A DNA stretch of 64,000 bases from assembly GCA_963789955.1 (NCBI GenBank), contig CAWBMV010000034.1:832001-896000 (forward strand), written 5' to 3'. Source of the DNA: an uncultured Candidatus Rokubacteria bacterium. GTDB taxonomy: Bacteria; Methylomirabilota; Methylomirabilia; Rokubacteriales; CSP1-6. A program made the position numbers. This document shows positions 21,001 through 24,000 of this stretch, in pieces (the stretch's first letter is position 1; each line of letters opens with the position of its first letter).

Positions 21001-24000
21001 GTCGTACGCACGCTCGCCGAGGAGCGGGCGAAGATCGTCGCCGATCCCGCCTACCGCTCGCCGATTCCGGCCCTGAAACGGCTCGCCGCGGCTGAAGTCT
21101 TCCTGACACTCGCCGGCGGTCATCCAGCGCCCGAGGATCGCCTGCGCGCAACGGACGTTTCGGCGCTCGTCGCGCGCTACGTCGCACGCGAGTTTGGCGG
21201 CGACCGCGCCCGGGCCACACGCGACTCGGCTGAGCGTGTCGCGCATACGCTCGGCGCGCGACGGCGCAACACCTGGCCGCCCGGCGAGCGTCGCGCCTTC
21301 GAGCGCATGTCGCTCGTCGCCGCGCTCATTCCGGATCTTTCGGCCTGGTCGCTCGCCGAGCGCCGTGCCCTGCTCGCGGTCATGCGCGCCAAGGGAGGCG
21401 GGACCGAGATGGCCTACGCGCGACGGCTCGATGGGCATGGCCGCCTGCGTCGAAGCCTCGAAGCTGCTCGCGCGCGCGTAGCCTCTCCATATCACTGGCC
21501 CGGTGTTCTAGCTCCGGCCTGTAAGTTTTCGCTTGACAGGCACTTTCAATACTCCGTATGGTTTCAGCAGATGCTGAAATGTTCGGAGCAAGAGAAAGGT
21601 GCTGAAATCCGAGGAGGTTCGGCGACAAGTGGCCCAGAGACTTCGGGAGCTTCTCCCGAAGGCGAAAGGCTGGCAGGAGAGCATCGGCTCCAAAATAGGC
21701 GGACAAGTCGTCGATTTGTTGGCCAGATTCCAGCTGGCCGGCCAGGAGCACACGTTGGTCGTTGAAGTGACGCCTCTCGGCCAGCCACGCCAGATCAGGG
21801 CCGCCGTGACCAGGCTGAACGACATTCGACGGGAGCTTCCGGGCGCCTATCCGATGGCCGGCGCCGTCTATATCGGCCCGCAGAGCGCGCGAATCCTCAA
21901 GAGCAACAACCTCGGCTTCGTGGATCTCTCGGGCAACTGCTACCTCGCCCTGGAGAACGCGCTGATCGAGAAGGAGGGCAAGCGGAACGTCCGGCCCTCG
22001 ACGCGGCCCCTTCGCTCGCTCTTCGCCCCCCGCGCCACGCGCGTGATCCGCGTGCTGCTGGTCGAGCCCGACCGGGCGTGGCGGCTGGAGGAGCTCGGGC
22101 GCGCCGCCGAGGTGAGCCTCGGCCACTCGCACAACGTGATCAAGCGACTCGAAGAGCTCGCATGGGTCGAGCGTGACGACAGCCAGCGGTTCCGGCTCTC
22201 GAAGCCGGCCGACCTGCTCGAGGGGTGGTGCGAGTCGTACACGTATCGAGCCAACGAGCGTACCTCGTATCTCGCTCCGGAGCGCGTCACGCGAAAGTTC
22301 ATGGGCGAGGTCGCCCGGGTCGCGGGCGCCGAGGGGCGCCGGTACGCCTTCACCTTGAACGCCGGCGCCGCGTTGCTGGCACCCAGTCTGAGATTGCCGG
22401 CCGTTCACTGCTACCTCGAGGGAGACCCCGCGCCGGTCGCTCGCACGCTCGGGCTGCGACCGGCCGCGGAGGTCGACGGAGCGCTCCACTTGCTCGCGCC
22501 CTACGATCTCGGCGTGTTCTACGGCGCCTTCGAGAAGGGCGGGCTCAAGGTGGTGTGCTTGCCGCAGCTGTACGCCGATCTCGTGCACTACGAGCGCCGC
22601 GGACGGGAGCAGGCCGAGCACCTGCGGCGCGAGGCGATGGGCTACTGAACGATCGCGGAAGGAGGTGATCTAGTGGCCAAGAAGAAGGCGACGAAGAAAA
22701 AGAAGAAGTAGATCCGATCCGATGAGGGCGGCACCGAGCTTGGACACGGAAGGAGGTGAGACGCTCGATGAAGAAGAAGGCCAAGAAGAAGAAGAAGTAG
22801 TAACGCGGCTGCGCTTGGTGGGGGGTGGCGGCCTCCCACCGTTGACCATGCGGGAGGGGGCCAACGCCCCCTCCCGCGTGTGCTGTGCTTAAATGACCTT
22901 CGTGACCTTGCCGGCCTTGAGGCAGCGGGTGCACACGCGCACGCGCCGGGGCTTTCCAGCCATCATGGCGCGCATCGAGACCAGATTCGGAAGCCACCGC
23001 CGCCGTGTCAGCTTGTGAGCATGGCTGATCGTGTTCCCGACGGAGGGGCCTTTTCCACAGACGTCGCAGCGCTGAGCCATTTGTGCTCCCTGGAATTGAG
23101 TTTCCGAGGACAGAACCGAAGGCACTGTATAGCACAGGGGCCGCCATGAAGCAAACCGCCGCGGCGTCGAATCTCGCGACGCCTCTGCAGTTCGTCAAAG
23201 GCGTCGGCCCGCAGCGCGCGGGTCAGCTCGAGCGGAAGGGGCTTCGCACCGTCGAGGACGCCCTCTTCTTCGTGCCGCTCCGCCACGAGGACCGAACCCG
23301 GCTGACGCCGTTCCGGTCGCTCGTCCCCGGCCAGGCCGCGACGTGCTCGGGCACGATCGTCGGCGTGAGCCCGCCGCCGCCCGGACGGTTCCGCGTGCCG
23401 TTCACCGTCATGCTGCGCGACTCGAGCGGCTACGCCACCGCCAGCTGGTTCGGCTGGCGGTATCTGTCGCGCGTCCTCAAGCGCGGCCAGCAGCTCGTGC
23501 TGCACGGCCGTGTCGGGCGCTACAAGGGCGCGATCGTCCTGCAGCAGCCGGACTACGAGATCGTCGAGAACGGCGAGGACGAGCGCCTGCACACGGGCCG
23601 CCTGGTCCCGGTGTATTCGCTCACCGAGGGGCTGCCCCAGCGCGCGCTCCGCTCCATCATGTGGCGGCTCGTCGAGGCGCACGCCGCCGAAGTGGAAGAG
23701 GTGCTTCCCGAGAGTGTTCGCGGGCGACGGGGACTCGTCGGACTCGCGCAGGCGATCAAGGACGCGCATTTTCCCGAGACCGATGCGGCACTGGCGGCGG
23801 CGAGCCGCCGCCTCTCGTTCGACGAGGGCCTGCTGCTCCAGCTCGGGCTCGCGATCCTGCGTTCCCGGGTCGCTCGCGCGCGCGGGCTGGCGCTGAATCC
23901 GCGGGGCGATCTGGTCGCGCGGCTGCGCGCGCGGCTGCCGTGGAAGCTGACGGGGGCGCAGGAACGCGTGTGGGAGGAGATCCGCCGCGACATGGCGGAG

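Follow-up and report, generated by a model that had tools for sequence, protein, structure and literature searches.

Results

The window, a stretch of 64,000 nucleotides from an uncultured Candidatus Rokubacteria genome, contains two tandem micro-ORFs on the + strand. Micro-ORF 1 (22673..22711) begins with GTG, encodes MAKKKATKKKKK and ends with TAG; micro-ORF 2 (22768..22800) begins with ATG, encodes MKKKAKKKKK and ends with TAG, directly behind which lies an in-frame TAA at 22801-22803. Both are preceded on the same strand by an extended Shine-Dalgarno (SD) site: GGAAGGAGGTGAT at 22657..22669 and GGAAGGAGGTGA at 22748..22759, whose duplexes with the 16S tail of this genome reach -20.8 and -19.8 kcal/mol, respectively. 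A further copy on the - strand of another contig (C6:252600-252638) encodes MAKKKATKKKKK between a TTG start and a TAG stop. An earlier note on this DNA had claimed three uncalled lysine-peptide ORFs with strong ribosome-binding sites, and this was confirmed: their SD duplexes (-19.8 to -20.8 kcal/mol) are stronger than those of all 978 sampled genes of the genome (median -7.1, best -18.1 kcal/mol). An HU gene (C30:96726) likewise has this SD core in front of it.

The claim that a genome scan finds exactly these three stood only in part. Searching for GG[AG]GG, a start codon and 7-30 codons with at least 40% Lys returned all three and a fourth ORF of another peptide type, 19 aa long (C22:524912-524971), upstream of an ABC-F ATPase gene. 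In 16 of 27 loci this second lysine-rich type lay 3-9 nt ahead of the ABC-F gene. The scan gave no match in the reversed genome, in any of five hexamer shuffles or in six control genomes, and a reversed-pattern control gave 7 matches versus about 740 listed or counted.

Although the search patterns set no frame requirement, the ORF was in frame at 107 of 116 loci from genomes and at 117 of 120 from metagenomes. The objection that loci had been chosen by ORF similarity was answered with neighbour-anchored loci, located via the adjoining gene with the ORF not used as query: the ORF was recovered in 19/30 such loci in Nitrospiria and 22/30 in CPR bacteria. Every ORF reached via a neighbouring gene stopped at TAA or TAG (73/73), in contrast to the genes of this genome, where TGA is the stop of 2496 out of 4050. 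AAG exceeded the flanking-gene level in all four sets (in CPR 64% vs 21%, p=5e-30). RNA contigs give neither strand nor level; run X3 covered 30/30 bins and may contain DNA, and a bin left uncovered carries no meaning. Coding status of the strong-RBS ORFs is strongly supported by the composition of 303 pooled ORFs, the TAA/TAG stops and the SD duplex energies. Judged from sequence, the micro-ORFs are real, unannotated genes for 10-12-residue, mostly-lysine peptides, and the best explanation for micro-ORFs 1 and 2 and the C6 copy is that they are paralogous genes of one polycation family.

Residues of the 303 pooled ORFs were 65% Lys, 23% Ala and 4% Thr, with Arg, Gly and Pro at about 2% each; Asp and Glu together made up 3/3953. 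Start codons were ATG (214), GTG (65) and TTG (24), and the SD core occurred as GGAGGTGA (182) or GGGGGTGA (101), a swap that retains 16S-tail pairing. All four codons of Ala, Thr, Pro and Gly were in use, and CGN accounted for 39 of 93 Arg codons. The pool held 164 distinct peptides; lengths were 8-30 aa, with one of 76 aa, and the sequence was free to vary even between neighbouring tandem copies. Repeat-like units (KKAAP, KKPA, PKAKAK) appeared in longer members only. At the CPR serS site there were Lys-to-Arg versions, for example MARKKAKRKKRKKRKK (L359), and at the Nitrospiria lpxC site one locus (L346) carried the 76-aa (PKAKAK)n H1-like repeat protein, the other loci there having 12-23 aa. 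Across these versions, selection holds on to the positive charge together with small spacer residues (Ala, Thr, Gly, Pro) and lets exact sequence and length change.

The sole sigma-70-like promoter within 21300-23300, TTGACA-18-TATGGT at 21533..21562 (+; shuffles 0.2 +/- 0.4), is a candidate for driving one transcript of a 349-aa gene and both micro-ORFs. That gene (21599..22648, +) is single-copy and regulator-like, with an AbiEi_2-like C-terminal domain (PF09952, 28.4 bits, cut-off 21). Its homologues, at 51-96% identity, lie next to the ORFs in order-level loci, and it is conserved as the upstream neighbour in Rokubacteriales only. A type IV (AbiE) toxin-antitoxin pair was rejected: no AbiEii nucleotidyltransferase toxin gene follows the AbiEi-like gene, and the C6 copy and those of other lineages have no AbiEi-like neighbour.

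Downstream of micro-ORF 2, folding revealed a GC-rich hairpin (22817..22840, +; 10-bp stem, 4-nt loop), near-invariant across 17 aligned loci, which is likely a transcript 3' end or stabiliser. A second, conserved GC-rich hairpin with a 12-bp stem (22850..22877, assigned to neither strand) has the micro-ORFs on one side and the convergent rpmB (bL28; PF00830; 22889..23080, -) on the other, and is likely a terminator common to both. Consensus folding of the 3' region from 14 poorly aligned loci gave one weak mixed helix, on which we base no covariation claim. Within 1.5 kb either side of rpmB outside the order, such an ORF was present at 0/27 loci; a ribosomal-operon link via rpmB was rejected on this ground, and the adjacency is incidental.

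The proposal that the C6 copy forms a one-gene unit was supported. The -35/-10 hexamers described for it are present (TTGACA-17-TAGCAT; 1 found, shuffles 0.2 +/- 0.5), and a TTGACA/TAnnnT promoter is retained at 23 of 26 loci of this single copy. The GC-rich downstream hairpin was also found by folding, but the terminator scan did not call it because it has no T-run. The C6 transcript is predicted to be 140 nt long. The ORFs face a convergent gene in three settings: rpmB in the window, nrdR at C6, and in Nitrospiria lpxC, which the copy adjoins. The next gene is co-oriented only in CPR, where copies sit downstream of serS and ahead of secA, and in some loci of one family (f4; EamA). No neighbour was common to all lineages among the loci compared.

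The pattern search matched 169 of 201 genomes of the phylum, with 1-4 copies per genome, and 19 of 30 re-tested pattern-negative genomes had 15-30-residue versions; the previous figure of 1 of 18 outside the order was an underestimate. Outside the phylum the strict pattern was sparse (3/151, 4/101 and 1/61 genomes), and a Dactylosporangium match, found in 1/61 genomes of its family, was not taken as an established member. Look-alikes occur in other bacteria, archaea and phages. One archaeal copy lies inside an rpl15e-RNase P p30 cluster. Phage MAC-KKK versions adjoin head or packaging genes at 11/32 loci, a weak association with no baseline, and annotated phage records gave nothing beyond chance matches of 24-27 nt. 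With sequences of such low complexity, common descent across phyla cannot be demonstrated.

The family was described nowhere in the literature searched, exact peptide strings included; small-ORF catalogues in supplements may contain such peptides. Exact look-up, HMM scans and folding covered longer members, the 10-12-mers being below the size limit. In a 15-billion set, 9/10 longer members were absent and 1/10 was a JGI hypothetical protein. In the ESM Atlas a 30-aa member fell near unnamed clusters (0.90-0.91) and an HC2-labelled cluster (0.86), a lead of low recognition.

Discussion

The closest known counterparts are bacterial H1-like proteins: Hc2/HctB (PF07382, NF038052), Bordetella BpH1, Burkholderia H1-like proteins (NF038053) and the KPAA tails of AlgP and PhaF. 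Hc2 and its H1-like relatives are described as combining Lys/Arg with Ala, Thr, Pro and Val and as free of acidic residues (PMC2848022). The 303 ORFs show this Lys plus Ala/Thr/Pro/Val, acid-poor composition, and both groups have a variable number of short basic repeats. The micro-ORF peptides differ in being 8-30 aa long (one 76), against 165-237 aa for Hc2 and 182-206 aa for BpH1, in being denser in Lys (65%), in having no folded domain and in occurring as 1-4 copies. No long array of pentamers, each with two basic residues, in a 150-240 aa protein was found, and longer members did not reach the PF07382, NF038052 and NF038053 cut-offs (window peptides are below the 20-aa limit): best scores were 18.9 bits vs 40 (L202) and 13.9 vs 135 and 13.5 vs 80 (L412). 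The 76-aa member had no match to H1-like family models.

On balance, we consider it somewhat probable that ribosomes make the peptide in large amounts and that this polycation, a pared-down H1 tail standing on its own, binds nucleic acid by charge. The earlier note had suggested such a polycation, and it is the best reading of Lys/Arg interchange, scarce acidic residues and a length continuum up to an H1-like repeat at an orthologous site. The genes would be transcribed and translated at a high rate, with extra copies (1-4 per genome) raising peptide dose. The predicted product, an unstructured peptide of 1.2-1.3 kDa with 8 lysines, would bind nucleic-acid phosphates without sequence specificity, neutralise and loosely compact the nucleoid and probably coat RNA too, much as a histone-H1/Hc2 tail would if cut down and set free, or as a polyamine encoded by a gene. 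Calculated monoisotopic masses are about 1285.9 Da for the micro-ORF 1 product once Met is removed and about 1244.8 Da for that of micro-ORF 2.

Synthetic oligolysines (K8-K16) offer a parallel: eight lysines, as in the micro-ORF peptides, suffice for full retardation of plasmid DNA at N/P 3 (PMC4991294). KPAA-repeat peptides are reported to bind DNA, and Hc2 to condense DNA and bind RNA. In gels K8 hardly retards siRNA, and its packaging of DNA is less stable than that by K16, so the 10-12-mers would be weak condensers unless very abundant. Unlike synthetic oligolysine or polyamines, they have dedicated chromosomal genes and predicted ribosomal synthesis. The genome already encodes 5 HU/IHF genes and 2 spermidine-synthase-like matches (PF01564), so the peptide is no simple substitute for these; given the two PF01564 matches, missing synthesis cannot be claimed and polyamine replacement was rejected.

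It is unlikely that the peptide belongs to the ribosome as a small basic component, or binds it as a ligand, filling an rRNA pocket (as bTHX, bS22 or eL41), or that it aids rRNA folding or ribosome storage. bTHX, bS22, bL37 and eL41 are very short, very basic and often missed by gene callers, with a fixed length and conserved Arg-rich sequence. The micro-ORF peptides fit in size and charge and are likewise uncalled, the extended SD is common to genes that read, by their N-termini, as rpsP and infB, and the rpl15e cluster, serS and ABC-F neighbours point the same way. Lengths of 8-76 aa and free drift, even in tandem copies, are unlike a fixed pocket, however, and the ORFs are convergent to rpmB and absent near it outside the order. 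Members of at least 20 aa had no ribosomal-protein match (13 members compared with NCBIfam, 7 with Pfam, 2 with PDB).

It is also quite unlikely that the function lies in a short, highly transcribed RNA with a near-perfect SD and an AAG run, or in its translation (holding ribosomes, sensing Lys-tRNA, stabilising upstream mRNA or binding a purine-repeat protein) with the peptide as by-product. Preference for AAG is strong, AT-rich CPR genomes included, and would also be expected from poly-A slippage avoidance; SD strength far exceeds need, and the 3' hairpins are conserved in sequence, with arms including CCTCCC. Against this, the CGN Arg codons and synonymous spacer codons break the AAN/ARN repeat with charge kept, and sensing of Lys-tRNA does not survive the replacement of Lys by Arg. 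Leader control has no target at rpmB in the window, at nrdR or at lpxC, since the gene that follows the ORF is convergent to it; an attenuator or leader peptide was rejected on this ground and because its control codons are not fixed at orthologous sites. Hfq was found in 0/5 carriers and CsrA in 1/5, some genomes being incomplete, which argues against an Hfq- or CsrA-binding sRNA; Rfam returned two chance-level matches, none below E=1.3.

In favour of an RNA role, the Leptospira counterpart was published as non-coding RNA. LIC1nc80 (JB_C1_N135) is a 202-nt intergenic transcript, Northern-detected and present in 42/43 pathogenic species (PMC3953431, PMC13224635), and 'ORF' or 'open reading frame' occurs 0 times in the main text. 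Inspected by eye (supplement file 2, row 75), its sequence has GGAGG, ATG, a 30-codon ORF with 16 Lys, 1 Arg, 9 Ala and 3 Val, and TAA. The ORF is longer and the SD shorter than in the window genes; the likeness is one of similarity, not demonstrated common descent.

A role away from nucleic acid, be it at a polyanion or surface such as polyphosphate granules, membrane lipids or LPS, as a lysine/nitrogen store or as an acyl sink, is very unlikely. AlgP, a KPAA-repeat protein, is found at polyphosphate granules (PMC9239181), this genome has Ppk1-type matches, and lpxC adjoins the Nitrospiria copy. PF02503 was not found in 4/5 carriers, one a complete genome (Ppk2 not covered), the peptide has neither hydrophobic face nor export signal, the lpxC linkage is convergent and lineage-specific, and Arg swaps speak against a lysine store. 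That the ORFs are low-complexity purine tracts or assembly artefacts, found by patterns that select their own finds, is highly improbable given the empty or nearly empty controls, recovery via neighbouring genes and preservation of frame, start, stop, SD and promoter.

Near-universal in the phylum, in up to several copies and with the genome's strongest RBSs, the polycation probably ranks with the most numerous peptides of the cell. The phylum is abundant in soil and groundwater, and the peptides lie outside gene calls and would be destroyed by the trypsin of standard proteomics, which points to a missing layer of charge control of nucleoid or RNA. At least one published sRNA, that of Leptospira, is redefined as likely mRNA. 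More tentatively, and with the balance against it, one ancient class of ribosome-made oligolysine genes, from 8-30 codons to H1-like repeats, may act as a main counter-ion for nucleoid or RNA across many phyla of bacteria, in DPANN-type archaea and inside phage heads. If so, no smaller conserved component of chromatin would be known; part of the class would stand wrongly catalogued as sRNA, and it would offer a present-day model of the free-standing peptide from which the histone H1 tail arose. The micro-ORFs also make testable the idea that the lysine-rich H1 tail has its origin in a free polycation of bacteria, and both Nitrospiria and the wider phylum, each with carriers, include cultured or enriched organisms.

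Micro-ORFs and their genomic surroundings

Two tandem lysine-rich micro-ORFs lie on the + strand of the window, downstream of a gene for a 349-aa AbiEi_2-domain protein (21599-22648) and convergent to rpmB on their downstream side. ORF1 (22673-22711) starts with GTG, encodes MAKKKATKKKKK and stops at TAG; ORF2 (22768-22800) starts with ATG, encodes MKKKAKKKKK and stops at TAG followed by TAA. Both are preceded by GGAAGGAGGTGA, the complement of the source genome's own 16S tail, and folding placed two GC-rich hairpins downstream. A third copy with a TTG start (C6:252600-252638) has nrdR as its convergent neighbour and a B12 radical-SAM gene as its divergent one.

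A whole-genome scan for a Shine-Dalgarno (SD) site, a start and 7-30 codons with at least 40% Lys gave four matches, and none in the reversed genome or five hexamer shuffles. The earlier note had counted exactly three; three are of the type it described, and the fourth encodes another type of peptide. This fourth strong-SD ORF (C22:524912-524971, + strand; L613:1413-1472), encoding MAKGTGMRKETKKPKKKKK, stops 6 nt upstream of an ABC-F (Uup-like) ATPase gene. In 16/27 loci the ABC-F orthologue has a comparable ORF 3-9 nt upstream; none of these loci is in family f4. ABC-F proteins relieve stalls on charged tracts. A basic 39-aa ORF on the - strand of the window's contig (C34:75017-75136; L614) carries KKHGGKIKKKKKTR at its end and probably starts further upstream. 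Contig C1 has another GGCTGGATCACCTCCT stretch, about 422700 from the minus-strand start, that looks like a 16S 3' end with no obvious rRNA context.

Distribution within the phylum

A DNA search with the window matched 61/61 genomes of the order (its own included), and the micro-ORF was present in all 30 loci listed. Of the 201 phylum genomes, 169 matched the pattern SD..KKK..KKK; within the order 141 of the 143 other genomes did so, and beyond it 27 of 57. Reversed, it gave 7 matches in total. Pattern matches were not always micro-genes: among the 27 loci inspected beyond the order, three (L055, L061, L065) proved not to be. The 30 pattern-negative genomes outside the order were re-tested through the HEPN-domain gene found upstream of the ORFs there. 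This anchor was located in 20; 19 of these loci held 1-3 ORFs of 15-30 residues, and the twentieth contig stops right after the anchor. The earlier note's count of 1 of 18 in the rest of the class is an underestimate. An rpmB search of the same 30 genomes gave 27 loci, none with an ORF within 1.5 kb, and rpmB linkage is therefore specific to the order. Some tallies and the pooled ORF set include genomes marked unpublished (G025, G096, G105, G140, G179, G217); the claims are independent of them.

Signs of translation and transcription

The micro-ORFs are very probably translated, judging by strong sequence signs. Their SD duplexes reached -19.8 to -20.8 kcal/mol, bearing out the strong ribosome-binding sites reported earlier; the best candidate SD of each of 978 sampled genes had a median of -7.1 and a minimum of -18.1 kcal/mol. 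This SD core also stands before an HU gene of the source genome. The core alternates between GGAGGTGA (182) and GGGGGTGA (101), which preserves 16S pairing through G-U. In three sets found through neighbours alone, 73/73 ORFs stop at TAA or TAG; TGA ends 2496 of 4050 gene-like ORFs in the source genome.

The -35/-10 hexamers noted for the C6 copy proved conserved: TTGACA-17/18-TAnnnT was kept in 23 of 26 single-copy loci, a set including duplicates and one mis-sorted tandem copy, while spacer DNA drifts. A transcript of about 140 nt with this ORF alone is therefore predicted. RNA-library contigs of four studies cover the micro-ORF site (22410-22777 with 3 differences, run X1; 22428-22715 with 1 difference, X5; 22460-22773, X12), and a 229-nt contig (X12) has the sequence that flanks the single copy in a relative; such contigs attest to presence in RNA libraries and not to strand, level or absence of DNA.

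Selection and proposed function

We pooled 303 distinct ORFs from the non-viral loci, part of them chosen by patterns requiring Lys codons and TAR; they encode 164 distinct peptides of 65% Lys, 23% Ala, 4% Thr and about 2% each of Arg, Gly and Pro, with Asp and Glu at 3 of 3953 residues. Starts were ATG (214), GTG (65) and TTG (24), and spacer residues used every synonymous codon. At the CPR serS site Lys and Arg interchange (MAKKKKKKK, MAKKRKKRR, MARKKAKRKKRKKRKK). Peptides at the Nitrospiria lpxC site span 12-23 residues, and one locus (L346) encodes a 76-residue (PKAKAK)n H1-tail-type protein with the upstream gene, SD and TTG start of the short versions. The upstream neighbour is AbiEi-like, HEPN, HARE-HTH or serS according to lineage, and various in archaea. 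Because length, sequence and context vary while Lys and Arg interchange, charge and flexibility are what is kept.

From gene anatomy and this selection pattern we infer, as the most likely reading and with moderate confidence, that the micro-genes make a very abundant, unstructured polycation. The peptide would contact the nucleic-acid backbone and neutralise its charge, leading to loose nucleoid compaction, and tandem copies would raise the dose. Lys/Arg interchange and near-zero Asp/Glu support the nucleic-acid-binding polycation proposed in the earlier note, with binding itself still a prediction. The source genome has five HU/IHF genes and two spermidine-synthase-like matches, suggesting that the peptide supplements rather than replaces them. 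Published reports describe K8 as fully retarding plasmid DNA at N/P 3, packing DNA less stably than K16 and barely retarding siRNA (PMC4991294). They also describe DNA binding by KPAA-repeat peptides, AlgP on polyphosphate granules (PMC9239181), DNA condensation, RNA binding and variable repeat number for Hc2, and a dispensable BpH1 (PMC2848022). Among 32 phage loci scanned, 11 had a head or packaging neighbour, 3 lysis, 2 tail, 5 DNA metabolism or HNH, 1 GroES and 10 no named neighbour; the head/packaging adjacency, which has no baseline, is weak support for a nucleic-acid role.

A peptide bound to the ribosome is an unlikely alternative, and a role at the RNA or translation level is slightly less likely still. 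All four sets favoured AAG relative to flanking genes, AT-rich CPR most strongly (64% vs 21%, p=5e-30). Such a preference is expected from avoidance of poly-A slippage; it also fits a putative RNA-level constraint and would count against a reading by charge only. CGN encodes 39 of 93 Arg residues, favouring the peptide as the object of selection. Hfq was found in 0/5 carriers and CsrA in 1/5, some of these genomes being incomplete. Another polyanion as target, or a store, is improbable, and an artefact highly so.

Look-alikes beyond the phylum

A GTDB pattern scan without a frame requirement gave at least 116 loci, hand-sorted into 50 Methylomirabilota-like and 66 others; the start and stop blocks shared a frame in 50/50 and 57/66, a few of the 57 being ends of longer H1-like proteins (L202, L203, L220). 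Titles among the matches listed were archaeal (Woesearchaeota, Micrarchaeota, Aenigmarchaeota) and bacterial (Patescibacteria, Nitrospirota, Planctomycetota, Omnitrophota, Acidobacteriota, Eisenbacteria, Eremiobacterota), and are partly unreliable, several loci having flanks of another lineage. In L219, L228, L272, L280, L283, L304 and L317, DNA of CPR or Rokubacteriales type sits under archaeal or other titles, which points to mislabelled or mis-binned contigs. Neighbouring genes of archaeal type (L15e, RNase P p30, thermosome, primase) confirmed some of the archaeal cases, all of which came from pattern matching.

The strict pattern was rare in even samples, centres included: 3/151 (class of G217), 4/101 (class of G218) and 1/61 (family of G224). 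Neighbour-anchored tests covered Nitrospiria and a CPR order. An SD and basic ORF lay convergent to lpxC in 19 of the best 30 of 55 Nitrospiria loci, and occurred in 22 of the best 30 of 60 CPR serS loci (centres included), so the strict pattern misses variants. In a metagenome scan 117/120 loci were in frame, spanning 27-69% GC. In viral contigs, 60 loci matched by a MAC-KKK variant yielded 44 short basic ORFs. Common descent across phyla cannot be shown from 10-12 low-complexity residues, and convergence is possible.

Relation to known proteins

The micro-genes are genuine, unannotated and conserved across the order and wider phylum. We consider them a new, minimal, stand-alone form of lysine-rich H1-like polycations, with function predicted. 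They are predicted to act as an H1/Hc2 tail does; membership in the H1/Hc2 families was rejected, as scores fell far below cut-offs and the length is a tenth. A PDB search with two members of at least 20 aa gave no match, 9 of 10 longer members were absent from a 15-billion protein set, and a literature search, mainly of titles and abstract starts with small-ORF supplement catalogues outside its scope, gave no description of the family. Two reports describe a 202-nt Leptospira RNA (JB_C1_N135/LIC1nc80), Northern-detected and in 42/43 pathogenic species (PMC13224635), and 4.39-fold up in host chambers without RT-PCR validation in that study (PMC3953431). By eye, its supplement sequence reads GGAGG, ATG, 30 codons (16 Lys, 1 Arg, 9 Ala, 3 Val) and TAA. 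This look-alike gene thus has a discrete transcript, which speaks to transcription alone and to neither translation nor kinship.

The AbiEi_2-domain gene is single-copy, lacks a toxin partner, shows 51-96% identity and keeps its position directly upstream of the micro-ORFs across the order; it looks like a domesticated antitoxin-type regulator. Upstream genes elsewhere are also nucleic-acid-related orphans: HEPN-domain in the rest of the class (L052-L078, L412-L431), coiled-coil plus HARE-HTH in Nitrospiria (L325-L353). The C-terminus of some copies is GKGC or GRGC (L412, L417, L419, L420), and phage versions (L553-L612) start with MAC; the cysteine could serve dimerisation or metal binding. 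Between CPR serS and secA (L355-L384), a palindrome, TACCAATTGATCA-TTGGTA, is kept downstream of the micro-ORF in many loci, possibly as an RNA hairpin or operator.
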